The notes: a model not told the origin generated them from the sequence alone. DNA of 32,000 nt from Candidatus Heimdallarchaeota archaeon (GCA_030149205.1 JASBSB010000006.1:300001-332000); one strand, 5' to 3'. Positions 5,491 through 13,909 are shown, counted from the first letter of the stretch. Numbers and translations are program-made.

Positions 5491-6060
5491 TCAAAGTTCA
5501 GTCTTAAGTGCGGATTCTATCGCCCGAGTTATGATCCACTCAAAAGCATCCTTAACCCCATCCCCATTAAGTGCAGATGTTTCAAAAACCGCATAAGAAT
5601 ACGCTGGCAGCATTGAACGGACGTAACTCAATACCTCATCTTCCTGCGGTTTCATGATTTGACGTGAATCTACCAGGTCAAGCTTGTTAAAGATGATAGC
5701 CAATGAAAATTCTTCAAGGTTTCCCACATTAAGCTCAAGGTCATCAACCCATGAATCTACCTGTTTTTTAAGATCAAGTGATTGAGTAAGGTCGAGCACA
5801 AGAAAAGCCCCAAGTGCACCTTTGAAGTACATATAACGGTGTGATTTGAACACCTCCTCCCCAGCGAGATCCCAGATGACTATCTTGTTTTGGACATCCC
5901 GGTACTTGTAAGAGAAAAAGGAAAGATCAACACCAAGTGTTTGGCGGTACTGACTCCCAAAGTTCTTCCCCATATAGCGTTTACGGAGTGAGGTTTTTCC
6001 AACCCTTGAGTTACCAAGGAGAATAACCTTCAAGATGAACTCATCATCAATCATAAACAT
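5491..6060 (-). CDS. Rab-like small GTPase (Ras superfamily)
   Basis: G1 GNSRVGKT, G2 T-LGVD, G3 WDLAGEE, G4 NKLD, G5 ETSAL, and Rab-like segments LGVDL, KIVIW, YFKGA and LVLDLT. No C-terminal Cys prenylation motif. Confidence 0.93.
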   Translation of the reverse strand: MFMIDDEFILKVILLGNSRVGKTSLRKRYMGKNFGSQYRQTLGVDLSFFSYKYRDVQNKIVIWDLAGEEVFKSHRYMYFKGALGAFLVLDLTQSLDLKKQVDSWVDDLELNVGNLEEFSLAIIFNKLDLVDSRQIMKPQEDEVLSYVRSMLPAYSYAVFETSALNGDGVKDAFEWIITRAIESALKTEL

Positions 6061-6232
6061 TCACATCTAAACGTCAACAGATAAAAACCTTATGGGTTAG
6101 GGAACAGTCTTTTGAATCCAATAAATATTGAAGAGATGACCTGAGGGGACTATTGCACCTAATTTGGCAATAGAGGGCTTAAAATAGGAAATTTTAATGG
6201 GATTGAGGAATAGGAGTTGTACAAAAAAAGAA

Positions 6233-6368
6233 TGACATGAAAAAGTCATGTCAAATTAAACTAAGACTTGACATTGACATAACAAAAACCCAAACACATT
6301 ATTGACATGACAAAAACATAACAATTCAAGATAAATTAAGCAATGACTGAACCCAGACATGACAAAAG
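6233..6368. repeat. Array of six GACAT-core operator-like repeats including a perfect 8-bp inverted repeat
   Basis: TGACATGA-AAAAG-TCATGTCA at 6233-6253, TTGACATTGACATAACAAAAA at 6268-6288, TGACATGACAAAAA at 6303-6316, AGACATGACAAAAG at 6355-6368. Confidence 0.8.
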
Positions 6369-6897
6369 ATATAAATCACCTTTGAAAATCCACTCCATGG
6401 CTAGAGAAGGTCAGCAAATTATCTCAATTTATGTCCCCCTCGAAACTTACGAAGAGATCAAGTTAGCAAGTAAGCAAGAAAACACCTCGATGAAAGAATA
6501 TTTACTCAGCCTACATAGATCGAAATCAAGCATAAAATCAGAGGAACAAAACCTGCTTGCTAGGCTTGAAAGAGCAGTTTCATTCTTGGAGAATCTTAGT
6601 GATTTAACACCACTCCAAACCAAACCAGGAGCAGCCCCAAAAACCAAATTCAATGTGGAAAGCCCACCTCAAGGAAAGTTATTTGACATAATCCAGAAAA
6701 TAAAAGCGAACGCAAGGACTATAAAGCAGGCTGAGACAATGATAAAAATTGTCGAAATAATACGTGATAGTGAACCAACTGGAGTTCCTTTAAGTATTAT
6801 CAGAAAATCAACCAACTCTTCTGCTCGTAACAACCTAATCAGACTAATTGATTGGGGTATAGTAAACTTAAGATCTAACCTTTACCATGTAAATTAG
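6343..6897 (+). CDS. Putative DNA-binding protein: N-terminal ribbon-helix-helix (CopG-like), coiled coil, C-terminal winged helix
   Basis: QQIISIYVPLETYEEIKLASKQENTSMKEYLLSL has the RHH strand-helix-helix pattern; MIKIVEIIRDSEPTGVPLSIIRKST...LIRLIDWGIVNLRSNLYHV has the wHTH pattern. The real start may be ATG 6397, which has TATAAA at 6370-6375. Confidence 0.65.
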   Translation: MTEPRHDKRYKSPLKIHSMAREGQQIISIYVPLETYEEIKLASKQENTSMKEYLLSLHRSKSSIKSEEQNLLARLERAVSFLENLSDLTPLQTKPGAAPKTKFNVESPPQGKLFDIIQKIKANARTIKQAETMIKIVEIIRDSEPTGVPLSIIRKSTNSSARNNLIRLIDWGIVNLRSNLYHVN

Positions 6898-6959
6898 GCT
6901 AAAACAATAGCTCAAATTGAAGAATAATCCAATCATGCTAGAGCCATCTTTACCCTTAA

Positions 6960-7950
6960 AACAATATAAAAAATATGAAATTATTTTGATTTAAATTAAT
7001 GAACATACAAATAAATCCAAACCAAAAATATGTAAATACAAAGCAAGAGAAAAAGAAATCATCATATTTATTCGATACATATAACGTACATATAATCTAA
7101 ATAATTATTTATGTTTAATTTTGACTAATATAATATATTATATCTTTTATAAAAAATTACTATAAGTTTTGTATTTGTGATTTTTAGTACCTAAACATTG
7201 CAAAATTTCAATAAATTTCAAGTTTTTCGCAACATGTTTAGTTTTGAATTTATTTTAATCCAAATATTTCCATAAAACATTAAATTTAGACTTATTATTT
7301 ATGAAATATATTGATTTTTAAATTTTTTAAATGTGGTTATTTTTAAATTTTGAATTAATATTTTGTAAATTAATTTTCATAAAATTATATAAATTAATGG
7401 TTTTTAAAATTATTATTCTTATAATAAAAATTTAGTAAATTAAATTTACTGGAATTATGTATATATGTTAAAATAGGTTGAAATTGCAAATTTATGTGAT
7501 CACTAAGATTTTAATTTAAAATATTTGAAGTATAATTTTACTCATCATTAGCTTTTTAATAGATATAATAAAGTTCGTAATATTTTTAGTGGTAGTGTTA
7601 AAAAAATACGATAGATTAAAACTTTTAATTTTTTACCTTTAATAATATATAATTTATTTAGACAAAAATAAAAAATAATTAATTTATTATTTTATTCAAA
7701 TAAACCCAATTAATTAGAATATTTTTAGATATTAAATTATTTTTTTGATAAACAAAAATATGACTAACAAATAATAAAATCATATTTCTGTTTATTGATC
7801 CAATAATACTTATTTAATTATAAATACTTTGAATATATAAAATAAACATATGAAATATTTTGTTCTCCTTATAAGTATTGAAATTGTGGGGTAATATATT
7901 AATGTCTGAATATATTCAACAAATTTAAAATTCTATCCAATTTGTTAGAA
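6960..7950. other. About 1 kb extremely AT-rich non-coding island
   Basis: Hand counts of 60-nt lines give about 8-20% GC (e.g. 5/60 at 7621-7680, 6/60 at 7321-7380) versus about 45% in a clpB line. No ORF of 60 aa or more in the track. Confidence 0.9.
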
Positions 7951-7952
7951 TT

Positions 7953-8747
7953 ATGAGTATCGATAATAATCAAGTGAACCTATTTCATGAGAAAATATTT
8001 TTGTGGTGGAAGGGAAACAAACGCAAACTTCCTTGGAGAGAGAACATTACTCCTTACAAAGTGTTGGTAAGTGAGTTCATGTTACAGCAAACACAAGTAT
8101 CAAGGGTCATCCCCAAATTCCAAAGCTTTGTTCAAAATCTTCAAGGTCTTAAAGAATTAGCTGCCTGTGACACGCCATCTCTATTAAAGTACTGGTCTGG
8201 ATTAGGGTACAACAGAAGGGCGTTGTATCTTAGGTCGGCAGCCAAAGCAGTTCTAAACGATCCCACAATCACATTGCATCCTGAAGAACTTCTCAAGATA
8301 AAAGGGATCGGAGATTATACCGCTCATTCAATACCAATATTTACCCATAACATTGATACTGTTACGATTGACACCAATATTCGAAAGGTACTCATACATG
8401 AGGGATTTGCAAACCTAGAGGCGAAACCTCGAGATCTTAAGAAAGTAGCACTAACACTCTTACCAAAAGGTAGATCAAGAGATTGGCACAACGCATTGAT
8501 GGATTATGCGGGTCAAAACCTTCGCAACTTTAAGCTGTTGCAAAAGAAGCAACCAAAGTTCTTAGGGTCAAAGAGAGAGGTTAGAGGGAATATTATCAAA
8601 CATTTGCTTCGGGTTAAGTCATTGAACTTGGATGAACTGAAAAAGAGGGTCGGGACAAATTTTATGGTAGTTGATCAGGTGATACAAGATTTGGTATCTG
8701 AGGGATTTATAACGAAAGTTGGCAACCAGTACCAGATAACGAAATGA
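7953..8747 (+). CDS. mutY: A/G-specific adenine glycosylase (MutY-like, HhH-GPD) lacking the 4Fe-4S cluster, with a C-terminal wHTH-like domain
   Basis: VSEFMLQQTQVSRV, WSGLGYNRRA, HhH LLKIKGIGDYTA, catalytic DTN and WHNALMDY are present. No Cys cluster follows. Confidence 0.85.
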   Translation: MSIDNNQVNLFHEKIFLWWKGNKRKLPWRENITPYKVLVSEFMLQQTQVSRVIPKFQSFVQNLQGLKELAACDTPSLLKYWSGLGYNRRALYLRSAAKAVLNDPTITLHPEELLKIKGIGDYTAHSIPIFTHNIDTVTIDTNIRKVLIHEGFANLEAKPRDLKKVALTLLPKGRSRDWHNALMDYAGQNLRNFKLLQKKQPKFLGSKREVRGNIIKHLLRVKSLNLDELKKRVGTNFMVVDQVIQDLVSEGFITKVGNQYQITK

Positions 8748-8751
8748 ATTA

Positions 8752-9999
8752 TTAGATTAGTTTTTGTAAGGTGTCCTCTGCCAGACCCTGTAATTCATTC
8801 ATTGGGAGTGCGTCAAGATCAGAGTAAGAAGAAACCAATGTTTTGATTGAGCGCTCAATCTGTCGGATGAACGAGAATGTGAAGGGGATATCTTTAGGAA
8901 GTAATATGGTGAAGACTGCTATTACAGTTCCCTTAAGTCTTTCATCAGTGACAGTGTCAGAGTGAATTTGGAAGCTGAAATTTATTCCATTGAAGTTGTA
9001 ATCTCGATCATAAGGAACAACAAACCATGATTGTCTGAAAGAATCATTCATCCCAGAAAGTGATATTGCTATCGTACTGTATAATTTAATAGTTATCTCA
9101 GGAATTTGGTACCTTTTGATAAATTCTTTGGTTATGGAATATGGTTGGGGACCATCATCAGAGAATGTGGAAAGCTGCCAACCAACTACTCCATTTTCAA
9201 AGAGATATTTGATATTTGAATGCGTAAAGGATATTCGTTCAATTAACACCAATGCAACAAAGTTTAGTACAATAGCAAGAGAAAAGGCAGTCACAAAGAG
9301 CATTACTTCAACAATTTCAGCTGCTGATAATAATTGAGATTGAGCTAACTGTCTCTCAAAAGTCAGTACCAAGACTCTAAATAGCTGGGCAAGAATCATA
9401 ACAAGTCCAAACACCCTTCCCACAATTATTCTTCTTGAGGAATCATCATTCATTCCAAACAGTCTAAGACGACCCCTGATAATGCTTGATTCACCTACAA
9501 ACAAGAAAACTAAGATTGAAAACACAAGGATAAGTGCCATATTGTAATATATATCACTAACTTCTACCCAAGATTTCGTTGTGATATCGTATTTAAGTGT
9601 ATAAAACTTGAAAACTGAATAGTTAACGAATGAATAAATTCTTAGGCTGATCAGGACCAATAGAGAAAAAATAAACAAATTTAGGATATAGTTGACACCA
9701 CTGTATTTTTTTTTCACCTTATAGTAGTAGTTTAAGGCATGAAGTGCGACCACAAAGAAGAAGAGAATTGAGCCCCAGAAATTAATTGTTCGAAACCATC
9801 CCGCATCTGCCCCCTTAGGAGTGACAATGATAGTGGTTTGGATAAGGGTAAATGTGAAGACAACTAAGTGAGTTAAAAGAACAAAGACCCGGAAGTAGAA
9901 AGCGCTGGTAATGGTATTTTGATAGAGTCTAATACCTGTAACTATAAAGACTACACCCATTAAAATTGTGATTAAAAGATAGAGGATATAGTTTAACAT
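8752..9999 (-). CDS. 7TM protein with cytoplasmic longin/uDENN-like domain, type A
   Basis: Seven hydrophobic helices in aa 1-255, then a soluble alpha/beta domain (GWQLSTFSDDGP...WFVVPY...DERLKG). Paralog of 11246-12520. The longin/uDENN call is an inference. Confidence 0.7.
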   Translation of the reverse strand: MLNYILYLLITILMGVVFIVTGIRLYQNTITSAFYFRVFVLLTHLVVFTFTLIQTTIIVTPKGADAGWFRTINFWGSILFFFVVALHALNYYYKVKKKYSGVNYILNLFIFSLLVLISLRIYSFVNYSVFKFYTLKYDITTKSWVEVSDIYYNMALILVFSILVFLFVGESSIIRGRLRLFGMNDDSSRRIIVGRVFGLVMILAQLFRVLVLTFERQLAQSQLLSAAEIVEVMLFVTAFSLAIVLNFVALVLIERISFTHSNIKYLFENGVVGWQLSTFSDDGPQPYSITKEFIKRYQIPEITIKLYSTIAISLSGMNDSFRQSWFVVPYDRDYNFNGINFSFQIHSDTVTDERLKGTVIAVFTILLPKDIPFTFSFIRQIERSIKTLVSSYSDLDALPMNELQGLAEDTLQKLI

Positions 10000-10001
10000 T
10001 G

Positions 10002-11189
10002 TTACACCAACGGGCTCAAAATTTTTGCCAGAGTATAATTTTCTAAGGGCGTATCTTCTAGCTGTTCATAGATGGACACGTATTTATGGACATAATCAAG
10101 GCTTTTCATTTGATGAGTCAGCTTGATAGGAATGGTTTGAGGAAAGACAAAATAGAAAAATACATTTACCAGATTACCCTGTTTATCTGGGAGTTTAACT
10201 GGCATAAAGACCACCTGTAGATTATTATTGTTTGGGAATGGTAAGGAAAAGACACCCAAATCCCGGAATTGGTTCTCTTCCAAGGAATTCTTTAATGTAT
10301 TACCTATAGCTGTGATGAAGCTCACCTCAAATGCAAGCAGATCTTTTCGAGAAATTTGATAATGCTCTTGAAAGCTGGAATTTGACTGGAGCTGTGAAAT
10401 ATTTAATTTATCGACTCGAAAGACGCCCCATCCAAAGATCCCAAAATCCATGAACCTTTTTATGTTATCAGTAAATTGAAACAGGGTCATAGGGATGAGC
10501 AATAGGCTTACGAAAAGGAGGTTGGTTGTTATCACACTATCCAAAAGAGTTATTTCCATAGCGGGGGCAGGAAACAAGATAACAAGGACAATTATGATTG
10601 GTTTTATTACAAAGAGCAGGGTAGTAACCAGAGCATAAATAACAGAATACTGATTACTCTCCTTTAGATTGGGCTTTACTACCAGGATGAATTTTCGGAT
10701 TAGGTAGAAATTAAAGAGGAGTATGAATGTATTTGTCAATGAAAGTAATACTGCTACTGTGTGATTTACATTAAGGACAAAAACCCCCACGTTCAATACT
10801 GACTCATTCGATCTTACAAAAACGAACTCTGAAACAGCAATAGGTAAAAGGAATGCAAAGCTGAAGGGAATAAAGAATCTGATAACAAGATGCATAAACA
10901 CAGATTTGTAGTCACTTAATAGGGAAATAAAAAGGAACAATAGTACCAATTCCAAGGAATTGAGTACCTTCACCAACGACAGATACCCCTCATTAATTGG
11001 GAGCTGAAGTGCATTGTCATAAGACAGCTTAAGAAAAGCTATGAGAGCGAGATTTGAGAAGAAAGCCATTATCCAAACTAAGAATTTTAATTGGGTGGCT
11101 TCTCTTAGTGTCATAATTGTCTCAAAGAGCAGCAAGAAACCAGCAATCCAGATTGCTGTTATGAAGAGAGTTATCTCAAGTTGGCTCAT
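10002..11189 (-). CDS. 7TM protein with cytoplasmic longin/uDENN-like domain, type B
   Basis: Seven TM helices, then GIFGWGV...LAFEVSFITAIGN...SLPFP...LPDKQG. Paralog of 12567-13754. Confidence 0.7.
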   Translation of the reverse strand: MSQLEITLFITAIWIAGFLLLFETIMTLREATQLKFLVWIMAFFSNLALIAFLKLSYDNALQLPINEGYLSLVKVLNSLELVLLFLFISLLSDYKSVFMHLVIRFFIPFSFAFLLPIAVSEFVFVRSNESVLNVGVFVLNVNHTVAVLLSLTNTFILLFNFYLIRKFILVVKPNLKESNQYSVIYALVTTLLFVIKPIIIVLVILFPAPAMEITLLDSVITTNLLFVSLLLIPMTLFQFTDNIKRFMDFGIFGWGVFRVDKLNISQLQSNSSFQEHYQISRKDLLAFEVSFITAIGNTLKNSLEENQFRDLGVFSLPFPNNNNLQVVFMPVKLPDKQGNLVNVFFYFVFPQTIPIKLTHQMKSLDYVHKYVSIYEQLEDTPLENYTLAKILSPLV

Positions 11190-11245
11190 CAGTCTATGTA
11201 AAGCACCATCGTTTTTATTTGTTTGTAAGCACTTTCAAACAGGGC

Positions 11246-12520
11246 CTACAAAATGAGTGAGAAAACTTTCGAAACTATACTATTTATCATTGCTTCAGTG
11301 TAAATTGGTATATCTATATCATGGAATCTGCTGAGATACCCCTCAATTTCTTGAATGTAGATCATGGTAAAGGGTGTTGATTCTGGAACTACCAGGGATA
11401 GAATGAATGGAGCCTTTTGTTCCAATCTGTCGTCCTTCAGCTCAGAATTTTGAACTGTGGTTTTGAGATTCAGTGTGGCTAAATTGTTATGAAATGGGAT
11501 AACAAACCAATTGTTACCTCCTTCATTATCACTCACTAAGCCACTGAGAGAGATTGTAATAGCAGAAAAGGTTTGAATATCTTCGACAGATAAGTTGTAG
11601 AATCTCTTTAGATTCTCGGAGACCGCATGAGTCTTTGGACCTGTGTTAGCTAGGGTGGAGGTAACCCACCCGAGGTAACCACTATCTAAAAGAAATTTGA
11701 TATTTTTTTTGTTAAATGTTATTCCGTTGGTGCTGAGAATAAATGTACTGGTGAAGATCATGGTAAAAATTAGTGAGGGAACAATGATAAGCATGTCGAA
11801 TAGGTTTTGCATGTTCAGTTCGAGTGTGATAAATGAATCTCCTGTAATAATTTCAGTGAAAATAAAACTAAGAATAGAGTACGCTGCTAGAATGCGGATG
11901 TACTTAAGATACGTCTTGAGTGAATTATAATTACCAAAAAATTTAAGCCTGGACAAAATAAATGACCTCTCACCCAGGAAGAACCAAATTACTAACAATC
12001 CTGTAACTGCATAAATTGAGATCAGGAATGGTGAGATGTAAGGATGCCAAAGTGCGACCTCTTGCATATACTCTATTTTGTAGAGGGGAAACTCTTGGAA
12101 ATCAATGAATGAGAAGGTGAGTATGGAGAATATTAGTGATACATCAATTATCAAGAGATTTAGCACCAAGGTTGACCTGCTGTACTTCCTTCTAACTCTG
12201 TAATAATATTTTATTATGATGTATAAGACGGATAGCAGAAGCAGTTGATTGATTAGAAAATCGTAGAATGGGAATGAGGGGTTGTTGAAATAGGAGTTTC
12301 CAACAAATTTGGCAACATAAGAGAGGGAGAACAAATAGACAGACACTAAAGCAGAGATATCTAGATAGTAGTCTGTAGATTTGGGAACGGTTGTTTTTCT
12401 TGTGTACTGTGCAATCAGATACATGAAACTAAAAGTAACTATGATGATACTTATCCAAAAGTATGTGTTGTTGACTGCCATGAAGTCCCTCAAATCAATA
12501 AGTGAATGATAACTATACAA
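11246..12520 (-). CDS. 7TM protein with cytoplasmic longin/uDENN-like domain, type A'
   Basis: Shares blocks with 8752-9999: YYYRVRRKYS/YYYKVKKKYS, LGE..I..RL..FG, NIK.L..G..GW, ISLSG, WFV.P, D.RL. Confidence 0.7.
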   Translation of the reverse strand: MYSYHSLIDLRDFMAVNNTYFWISIIIVTFSFMYLIAQYTRKTTVPKSTDYYLDISALVSVYLFSLSYVAKFVGNSYFNNPSFPFYDFLINQLLLLSVLYIIIKYYYRVRRKYSRSTLVLNLLIIDVSLIFSILTFSFIDFQEFPLYKIEYMQEVALWHPYISPFLISIYAVTGLLVIWFFLGERSFILSRLKFFGNYNSLKTYLKYIRILAAYSILSFIFTEIITGDSFITLELNMQNLFDMLIIVPSLIFTMIFTSTFILSTNGITFNKKNIKFLLDSGYLGWVTSTLANTGPKTHAVSENLKRFYNLSVEDIQTFSAITISLSGLVSDNEGGNNWFVIPFHNNLATLNLKTTVQNSELKDDRLEQKAPFILSLVVPESTPFTMIYIQEIEGYLSRFHDIDIPIYTEAMINSIVSKVFSLIL

Positions 12521-12566
12521 ATTTCAGTGAACTCTTTTATAAGCTTTCTTTAAAATAATTCAGAAT

Positions 12567-13754
12567 TTAACGAATTAGTGGGCTGATTATCTCCGACACC
12601 TGAGGTGATGTGATGTATTTGACATTTAAACTTTCATATTTTGAGTTTAGTCTATAGATACCTGCTTCTGACTCTCGGAGAGCAGAGAGGTTTAACTGGG
12701 TTCGTGGAGAAGTTATCATAAAAATTAGTAATGTTCTGAGTCTACCATTTTTATCGGGCAAATAAATTGGGAGAAATAGAATTCGATGGTTTTTTGAAAA
12801 TGGGAATGGAATTGAAAGATAACGGAGATATGTACCAGATTCTTTTTGAGCTAATGCAGTAAGAACGGAGGTTTCAAAGGCTAAAATTGATTTTTGTGTG
12901 ACATTATTTCTTTTGAGGTATCCATCAGAGATAAATTTCAATTTAGGGTTATTCCCTTCTATCTCGAGAATGCCCCATCCAATATTTCCTGAATCTATCA
13001 ACTCCGCAAGTGTCTCTTTCATATGAAATAAAACCTCAGGATATGCTATTAAAGTTATAATCAAAGTTTGGAGGCTGGTGGTGAGAACAATCATGGACAG
13101 TTCAAAGGAAACAGATGGAAAATTTGCGAATGTAATGAGAGATGCTGGGATAAGGATTACAAGCATCAGGTCTGAAGCAAATAACAAACTTTGAAGTCCT
13201 CTTCTCTGAACTTCAAATGTTAGTGAATATTTCCTGATAAGATATCTGTTTGAGATCAGTGCCATTGCACTTCCGGAGAGATAAAAAATTCCAATGATGT
13301 ACTCTAAGGGGATATTTTTTATTGAGGTGTTAGGTATAGAGATACTGCTGTAAGGATATTGATAGGGTTGATCGGAGAGGAAGATCAATGTGATAAATGT
13401 AATTAAGAGAGGGGAAAAAAATTTGCTAAATAAATGCATTTCAATTGATTTATACTGAATATTTCTGCTGATAAAAAGATAAATGACTATGGTCTCACTT
13501 ATCAAAAATACCTTGACAAATCCTAATAGGAGGGTGAATTTGACCGGAAGAATAGAATTTGAATGTAAATATAGAACTTCAGCCTCTATAAAGTAAAAGA
13601 GGTAAAGTGATGTAGCAACGGTTATTAATAATAAAATCAACCAAACCTTTTTTCTTTCTTTGTTTGGATTAAATAGATAGATGGCAGTACCCACTATAAA
13701 TGAGCCTAAATTAATGACTAATGAAATAACCAGCAGGATGATGTCTATATCTAT
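12567..13754 (-). CDS. 7TM protein with cytoplasmic longin/uDENN-like domain, type B' (start uncertain)
   Basis: Shares blocks with 10002-11189: VKV...E.....LFIS...YKS..MHL..FF.P, YLIRK, GWG, LAFE.S..TA, PFP, LPDK.G. The open frame extends upstream of the called GTG at 13694 with a hydrophobic TM1 (IDIDIILLVISLVINLGSFIV). Confidence 0.7.
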   Translation of the reverse strand: MDIDIILLVISLVINLGSFIVGTAIYLFNPNKERKKVWLILLLITVATSLYLFYFIEAEVLYLHSNSILPVKFTLLLGFVKVFLISETIVIYLFISRNIQYKSIEMHLFSKFFSPLLITFITLIFLSDQPYQYPYSSISIPNTSIKNIPLEYIIGIFYLSGSAMALISNRYLIRKYSLTFEVQRRGLQSLLFASDLMLVILIPASLITFANFPSVSFELSMIVLTTSLQTLIITLIAYPEVLFHMKETLAELIDSGNIGWGILEIEGNNPKLKFISDGYLKRNNVTQKSILAFETSVLTALAQKESGTYLRYLSIPFPFSKNHRILFLPIYLPDKNGRLRTLLIFMITSPRTQLNLSALRESEAGIYRLNSKYESLNVKYITSPQVSEIISPLIR

Positions 13755-13909
13755 GTCATATCCCTCAAGATATATACTGCAATTTTGTTTAAATGCTTTA
13801 TAGTTGAAGAGACCTAAAGCTTGATACTTTTTTCATGGAAGATGTCTCAAATTTGTTGAGAACCCAGAGGACTTAGAAGTTATCAAAGAGAGGTAAGTCT
13901 GTGAATTTT

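Follow-up and report, generated by a model that had tools for sequence, protein, structure and literature searches.

The longin domains of three eukaryotic GTPase-activating protein (GAP) complexes have been compared in a 2025 survey. As set out in sections of that survey, FLCN, NPRL2, SMCR8 and C9orf72 as well as a class of Asgard longins have in common an arginine finger and a Gly-Pro pair (GP) that opens strand 2 or closes the loop before it, whereas both are reported to be absent from the longins of FNIP2, NPRL3, DENN, TRAPP and adaptin proteins (PMC12290439). Parts of a preprint by Liu et al. further describe Asgard fusions of NPRL2-like longins to two-component domains (10.1101/2020.10.19.343400). 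Here we analyze a 32,000-nucleotide stretch of DNA from Candidatus Heimdallarchaeota archaeon (GCA_030149205.1 JASBSB010000006.1:300001-332000; hereafter the window, with positions counted from its first letter), in which four consecutive co-directional open reading frames (ORFs) on the minus strand (8752-13694) each encode a seven-transmembrane (7TM) protein with a C-terminal domain of about 150 aa. We propose, with a probability of about one half, that these C-terminal tails form a 7TM-anchored asymmetric longin dimer whose role is that of a GAP for a small GTPase or, at the minimum, of a platform on which the GTPase docks.

Longin-type tails in a tandem gene cluster

By increasing coordinate, and all on the minus strand, the cluster consists of gene A' (P0001; 8752-9999, 415 aa), gene B' (P0002; 10002-11189, 395 aa), gene A (P0003; 11246-12520, 424 aa as listed) and gene B (P0004; 12567-13694, 375 aa as called, from a GTG). 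The type A proteins end in a tail of catalytic type and the type B proteins in a degenerate one. The genes are closely spaced: the stop of B' falls 2 bp before the start of A', 56 bp separate A from B', and 46 bp separate B from A as listed (85 bp if A begins at the ATG discussed below). No other ORF of at least 80 aa is present on either strand across 8752-13694. In BLASTP comparisons, A' matched A (26% identity over 319 aa, E 5e-35) and B' matched B (26% over 330 aa, E 6e-32), whereas the cross matches between A and B types were weak (E 4e-3 to 2e-6) and confined to the C-terminal ~150 aa. This alternation of similarity is far beyond chance. Together with the ORFs and a seven-helix model of A', it bears out the picture of four minus-strand 7TM genes of alternating similarity drawn in an earlier note on this DNA; the G-x-x-G-W motif which that note placed at the start of the tail is likewise invariant in all four proteins.

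The tail of A' was modelled as a beta-beta-alpha-beta-beta-beta-alpha-alpha domain with a predicted local distance difference test score (pLDDT) of 90-97. The top PDB match of the A' model in Foldseek was 8yqg (E 2.7e-3, probability 1.00), a longin domain from a roadblock-longin protein of Lokiarchaea, followed by the longins of GATOR1, SEA, FLCN-FNIP2 and Lst4, intermixed with LOV/PAS domains. An exhaustive structural search (VIA) with A' residues 260-415 also led to 8yqg (Z 11.2 over 136 aa, root-mean-square deviation 3.6, 18% identity), with C9orf72-SMCR8 (Z 9.4), Lst4 (9.3), the FLCN complex (9.1), SEA (9.1), AP5 (8.7) and GATOR1 (8.6) behind it; these tail matches come from an earlier model whose transmembrane (TM) part had been trimmed for low confidence, and with the good A' model the VIA matches were filled by the 7TM bundle. 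Among neighbours in the Atlas were Asgard clusters, one with Pfam Folliculin on 23% of its members and one fused to an Arf/Ras GTPase, as well as a eukaryotic uDENN cluster of FLCN/SMCR8.

Profile comparison led to the same class of domain. When the tail family (56 sequences) was aligned with hhalign against 16 Asgard proteins of Folliculin type, all above the Pfam Folliculin cut-off, the match had a probability of 96.5% (E 7.4e-10, 107 columns) and placed GP on GP and the arginine on the invariant arginine of the A-R-G-G motif of the Folliculin-type Asgard longins. This link holds at the profile-profile level only, as the tail hidden Markov model (HMM) had no direct match at E <= 10 to the Folliculin-positive Asgard ORFs, and searches with PF11704 and PF06218 across the window's own genome returned no match.

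The short linker helix (260-268) and two C-terminal helices of the A' model are the arrangement of a longin; in the roadblock topology, strand 1 is preceded by an N-terminal helix and only one helix stands at the C-terminus (PMC10933270), and no roadblock entry was among the matches listed in the VIA tail search. No central or downstream DENN domain was found: the proteins end with the longin domain and have no Pfam DENN match. The assignment of the tails to the longin domains of the folliculin/NPRL2/SMCR8 class is well supported, and their earlier description as longin/uDENN-like holds, with a longin of the FLCN/uDENN class recovered by Foldseek, VIA, Atlas and hhalign alike.

Motifs, pairing and proposed mechanism

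In the A' model, G283 and P284 open strand 2 (283-289) and R354 lies in the loop between strands 4 and 5. Within the longin domain of A' (8755-9228), GVVGW is encoded at 9178-9192, GP within 9145-9159 and T-D-E-R354-L-K-G at 8929-8949. The longin domain of A (11249-11716) has GYLGW at 11666-11680, the GP motif NTGPK at 11633-11647 and KDDRLEQ at 11417-11437; its DDR takes the Asp-x-Arg position in the strand 4-5 loop and would supply the candidate arginine finger. Glycine, proline, aspartate and arginine are nearly invariant across the family, the arginine being at least 90% conserved, and all four are also kept where the same domain is fused to REC, PAS, TPR or GTPase modules or stands alone. 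The GP and D-x-R motifs of type A are the published signature of GAP longins, not of longins in guanine nucleotide exchange factors (GEFs), and point to a GAP.

The tails of type B diverge at exactly these positions. The longin domain of B' (10005-10478) carries GIFGW (10428-10442) and LPDKQGN (10173-10193) and has LNI at the GP position (10398-10412), with both Gly-Pro and the arginine lost; that of B (12570-13025) carries GNIGW (12975-12989) and LPDKNGR (12741-12761) and has NNP at the GP position (12942-12956), with the glycine lost and the arginine, if any, shifted. The glycine of GP is absent from all five B-type proteins (two here and one each in three genomes of the same genus), and the arginine from two of the five, namely B' and one relative. 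By these motifs, type B would resemble the non-catalytic partners FNIP and NPRL3. As regards the marks by which the earlier note had told the types apart, GP and D-x-R-L are indeed present in A and A', and LPDKxG in B and B', but PFP turned out to be family-wide and is not a type B mark.

The earlier note had read the cluster as a receptor-GEF, with the A/B longin heterodimer exchanging nucleotide on a Rab-like GTPase in the manner of Mon1-Ccz1, TRAPP and DENN proteins. Most known longin/roadblock platforms are GEFs (PMC3747258; PMC10933270), both the longin fold and a modelled heterodimer are supported here, and a Ras-family GTPase gene does lie 2.7 kb away. Nevertheless, the conserved GP and arginine are marks of GAP longins, reported to be absent from DENN and TRAPP longins in the sections of PMC12290439 cited above, and for this reason we favour a GAP over a GEF. 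Moreover, the closest solved eukaryotic folds are longins of GAP complexes and not those of Mon1/Ccz1 or TRAPP, cDENN and dDENN domains are missing, and the GTPase is not a conserved neighbour. Exchange activity therefore appears quite improbable, and this part of the earlier interpretation is not supported.

The interpretation as a GAP built on an asymmetric dimer drew further support from modelling of the A' and B' tails together. The predicted complex scored 0.67, compared with 0.00 for the best control, and so passed a mark that 58 of 80 solved complexes attain, as do 2 of 110 mismatched pairs. At least 43% of contacts were shared between runs, and the partner pLDDT was at least 83. The modelled interface involves helix alpha1 and strand beta3 on both chains (A' residues 306-329). 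The result may reflect likeness to, or memory of, solved longin and roadblock dimers, and it does not tell a heterodimer from a homodimer.

The membrane part was modelled with AlphaFold2 from an alignment of 43 sequences (A' protein; pLDDT 86, predicted template modelling score 0.78). It comprises seven long TM helices (residues 2-27, 31-59, 64-96, 100-125, 150-180, 185-218 and 226-255) and an outside beta-hairpin (133-148) in the TM4-TM5 loop. The odd loops contain 10 lysines and arginines and the even loops 5, which orients the protein with an outside N-terminus and a cytoplasmic tail.

These observations suggest a mechanism in which the A and B tails would pair through helix alpha1 and strand beta3, as in the model, to form an asymmetric longin dimer at the inner face of the membrane. 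Such a dimer may dock a small GTPase and supply an arginine, thereby stimulating GTP hydrolysis, while the 7TM halves might control the activity of the tails in response to a cue within the membrane or beyond it. The whole would then be a receptor-GAP, functionally comparable to the plant 7TM-RGS proteins, where RGS stands for regulator of G-protein signalling. In its most complete form, the proposal is that of a self-contained receptor-GAP, whose asymmetric dimer of a catalytic and a pseudo-catalytic tail switches off a small GTPase lacking the catalytic glutamine upon an external or membrane signal, with the asymmetry of FLCN-FNIP and NPRL2-NPRL3 re-invented independently; this form we consider possible and put forward tentatively.

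Family history, candidate clients and opposing evidence

In four genomes, a single syntenic locus with the gene order redoxin, VKOR, B, A holds all B genes, each directly upstream of an A gene; relatives of the same genus have one B-A pair each at this locus. In a quick maximum-likelihood tree, which has long branches and is indicative only, the genes of the locus form one clade (SH-aLRT, the Shimodaira-Hasegawa-like approximate likelihood ratio test, 89), A and A' are sisters (99), and B and B' are sisters (97) that join the B genes of the relatives (80). Our reading is that A was probably duplicated to give B in the ancestor of the genus, and that the B-A unit was then duplicated once more in this lineage. 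Duplication of the pair as a unit had been suggested before, and both the sister relationships and the single pairs of the relatives agree with it. The resulting asymmetry appears to parallel that of FLCN-FNIP and NPRL2-NPRL3 and to be of independent origin. Furthermore, between genomes of the same genus (L017, L026, L027), syntenic A and B proteins share only 20-27% identity, compared with 41-78% for flanking genes (VKOR, redoxin, HhH-GPD and two others). The 7TM-longin genes thus evolve unusually fast, and the motifs of catalytic type are retained despite this divergence.

The family is small. Searched exhaustively with a profile, 1.84 billion representative proteins yielded only 43 relatives at E <= 1e-3, nearly all of 350-420 aa, and Pfam has no match on any of the four proteins or on the 43 family members; word-indexed homologue searches returned the query itself or one relative only, with candidate lists swamped by hydrophobic words. 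Across 400 genomes of the phylum, the full form with 7TM part and tail is restricted to a few families (f1-f6), all within the class to which the window belongs, whereas the tail alone is widespread in other architectures, including REC-longin, PAS-longin, PAS-longin-GAF-GAF, TPR-longin, GTPase-longin and standalone forms. The same genome contains a second signalling cluster (C7:32378-40168) with a REC protein that has a GP-containing strand in its C-terminal part, an MCP-like protein, a protein of 343 aa with a degenerate GTPase at its end, a protein of 251 aa and unknown nature, and a 255-aa GP/D-x-R longin protein (C7:39401-40168). In genome G313, from another Asgard family, a 364-aa protein (L070:3218-4312, plus strand) is similar to the family in its 7TM part (over profile positions 6-234, with E 2.5e-8) and has a tail that is roadblock/longin-like by eye, without GP and arginine. 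This suggests that the 7TM module may have been combined with different members of the roadblock/longin superfamily.

The GTPase gene 2.7 kb from the cluster (5491-6060, minus strand) belongs to the Ras family (Pfam Ras, E 1e-28) and has glutamate in place of the catalytic glutamine (DLAGEE); here it serves as context only, as one candidate client. The earlier note had tied it to the receptors by proximity. The Ras-family assignment and the distance are both real; however, the genome has 27 Ras-family matches in 3.3 Mb, and we estimate the chance of finding one within 3 kb of a 5-kb cluster at about 9%. In addition, the orthologues of this gene in three relatives (44-48% identity) adjoin ClpB, with no 7TM-longin family member in the 18-20 kb examined. 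Given this chance and the lack of conserved linkage, the gene was rejected as a specific partner by proximity. In Asgard genomes, a GTPase is seldom linked to its candidate regulators, which makes pairs hard to assign (PMC10933270).

A better lead comes from outside the window. At C4:64794-65822 (plus strand), the same genome encodes a 342-aa protein in which a Ras-like GTPase without the catalytic glutamine (again DLAGEE) is fused to this type of longin, with GP and D-E-R intact, and which may naturally unite the proposed enzyme class and a candidate client in one chain; an Atlas cluster of such longin-GTPase fusions has 107 members. The GTPase of the window and that of the fusion fall into a clade of five paralogues (SH-aLRT 97). 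Four of the five have a recognizable G3 motif, with glutamate or aspartate for the catalytic glutamine, and the fifth, on a long branch, has no match to the motif. Besides the window gene and the fusion, the glutamine-less paralogues include C4:378985-379551 and C8:471019-471585. Among the roughly 29 small GTPases of the genome there is also a Rag-like one, at C2:203695. The glutamine-less Ras-like subfamily, including the GTPase of the window, is our best lead to the putative client.

Several results weigh against a receptor-coupled longin GAP. Direct matches of the tails to Pfam Folliculin (PF11704) or NPR2 (PF06218) were not obtained, sequence searches of the PDB with a single tail and with the 56-sequence profile gave chance-level matches only, and the LOV/PAS domains in the Foldseek search had E-values only about 10-fold worse than those of the longins. 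All seven helices of A' (residues 1-255) find structural counterparts in GPCRs, Ste2 and microbial rhodopsins, with Z 12-14.3, and the nearest Atlas shape for residues 2-300 is a bacterial HisKA_7TM cluster (template modelling scores 0.40/0.46); because these values are within the range that unrelated helical bundles reach, the modelled 7TM part is called receptor-like, and not a GPCR. Ras-like genes were not found near the other 7TM-longin loci, so that GTPases are not conserved neighbours. An arginine is present at or near the aligned position in three of the five B-type proteins, and "non-catalytic" is a firm label for B' and one relative only. Finally, most family members are singletons: 16 other full-length members, of A type, stand at loci without a 7TM neighbour, and heterodimerisation is thus not generally required. 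Since these members stand alone, and with B confined to one genus, the B-A pairing appears to be a local innovation and not a rule of the family. Of the obligate A/B heterodimer claimed earlier, there remains the A'/B' tail dimer modelled through the canonical interface, but not its obligate nature.

Some of these results would fit a module that has nothing to do with GTPases, in which the tail is a PAS/GAF-like sensor or adaptor of two-component-like pathways, the 7TM proteins are ordinary archaeal sensors and the output is a protein-protein contact. The same domain is fused to REC, PAS, GAF and TPR modules, in line with the two-component fusions of NPRL2-like longins in the cited parts of Liu et al.; LOV/PAS structures are close runners-up in Foldseek; a conserved GTPase neighbour is missing; and the language-model neighbours of the tail are GAF-like (SpoVT_C, PocR), albeit with scores of only 0.75. 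In the corresponding Atlas search by features, scores reached at most 0.83 for the whole protein and 0.76 for the tail, which is below the useful level. Against such a module, the GP and D-x-R motifs are near-invariant at the exact positions of FLCN-type catalysis, and the domain is fused directly to small GTPases, both in this genome and in the Atlas cluster of fusions. The REC-longin form, too, makes more sense as an output under regulation than as a sensor. A function apart from GTPases hence seems doubtful.

The longin dimer could also be a non-catalytic membrane platform that recruits or scaffolds a GTPase or a longin/roadblock protein, in a Ragulator-like fashion, with the 7TM part mainly an anchor. 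Longin and roadblock dimers are often platforms (PMC10933270), B-type copies tolerate the loss of the motifs, the TM region has almost no invariant residues, and the 7TM relative in G313 carries its roadblock-like tail without GP or arginine. Yet GP and arginine are strongly conserved in A-type proteins and in soluble relatives, and a seven-helix bundle with a conserved outside hairpin exceeds what an anchor needs. We regard a purely scaffolding role as unlikely and retain the asymmetric longin GAP as the preferred interpretation.

Two gene boundaries call for revision. The true start of A is probably the ATG at 12481, giving a 411-aa form (P0007). For B, the position 13759 given in the earlier note as the end of the cluster is wrong, as the ATG there is out of frame with B and is soon followed by a stop. 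The open frame of B extends about 46 codons 5' of the GTG (13694) to about 13830, for 421 aa in all, and the extension encodes TM1 (IILLVISLVINLGSFIVGTAIYLF), which is otherwise missing from B as called; family profile matches reach 13706 and, in another search, 13733. No ATG, GTG or TTG is present in the extension (13695-13830). With TM1 encoded and no canonical start, the 5' end of B would therefore have one of three explanations, an unusual start codon, damage or an assembly error. In a second strain (run X2), a 19-bp insertion lies behind 13800 and contigs break at 13622 and 13657. The X2 contigs cover the region piecewise, and the single-nucleotide polymorphisms listed in A and A' (20 synonymous, 20 non-synonymous) come from a depth of at most 5, too thin to use.

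None of the four proteins contains a cysteine, despite the position of their genes directly 3' of a conserved redoxin-VKOR (disulfide-forming) pair. A functional link to these upstream genes, which are conserved neighbours in the genus, was considered and dropped on account of this absence. Elsewhere in the window, GC content falls to 25% in the 2-kb bin at 6000-8000, between the gene at 6343-6897 and the HhH-GPD gene.

Comparison with known systems

The locus bears on how small GTPases of Asgard archaea are regulated and on what they sense. It offers short, soluble and expressible tails with a clear prediction, namely arginine- and GP-dependent GAP activity from the A/B dimer. Type B provides an internal negative control, the 7TM part an input domain in the membrane, and the five paralogues, one of which is fused to the same type of longin, a small set of candidate clients. 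If the proposal is true, an off-switch of the folliculin/GATOR1 kind was already coupled to membrane receptors in archaea, pairs of catalytic and pseudo-catalytic longins evolve readily by tandem duplication, and the closest archaeal relatives of eukaryotes have a direct pathway from a receptor to a small GTPase.

Earlier publications already cover this class of domain and its use by signalling proteins of Asgard archaea. The direct 7TM-longin fusion and the tandem catalytic/degenerate pair appear to be new: in the main text of the Liu preprint and of PMC12290439, figures and supplements being outside this scope, the word "transmembrane" does not occur, nor does "7TM" in that of the preprint, and no tandem pair of this kind was seen in the portions of either source considered here. 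The Asgard longins of FLCN/SMCR8 or NPRL2 type in those portions (Liu et al., 10.1101/2020.10.19.343400; PMC12290439) are of the same class as the tails by profile (96.5%, E 7e-10), and share with them GP, the arginine and fusion to prokaryotic signalling domains; in contrast, the 7TM-longin proteins form a sequence family of their own, which evolves fast and has 43 members among 1.84 billion representatives. The best solved structural match, the longin domain of the Lokiarchaeota Roadblock-Longin protein (8yqg), is dimeric, and its title indicates no 7TM module.

Other comparisons concern the architecture as a whole. Bacterial sensors with HisKA_7TM (PF16927) likewise join a 7TM input to a cytoplasmic signalling output; their output is a kinase and here it is a longin, and the 43 family members have no Pfam match. 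The plant 7TM-RGS protein AtRGS1 has a seven-helix receptor-like module followed by a cytoplasmic C-terminal GAP domain for a G protein. It differs from the proteins described here in having an RGS box instead of a longin fold and a G-alpha instead of a small GTPase as client, and the two are not homologous.

The eukaryotic longin GAP heterodimers FLCN-FNIP2 (for RagC/D), NPRL2-NPRL3 in GATOR1 (RagA/B) and SMCR8-C9orf72 (Arf/Rab) share with this locus the longin fold (Z 8.6-9.4), GP at the start of strand 2, an arginine between strands 4 and 5 in one subunit, a partner without the motifs, dimerization through alpha1/beta3 (here modelled) and action at a membrane surface. Unlike them, the archaeal proteins, known from sequence and models, have neither DENN nor other C-terminal domains, and their tails have no direct Pfam Folliculin/NPR2 match. 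Moreover, the asymmetry of A and B would have arisen independently, in one archaeal genus, and a 7TM module in the same chain as the longin takes the place of recruitment by Ragulator, KICSTOR or WDR41.

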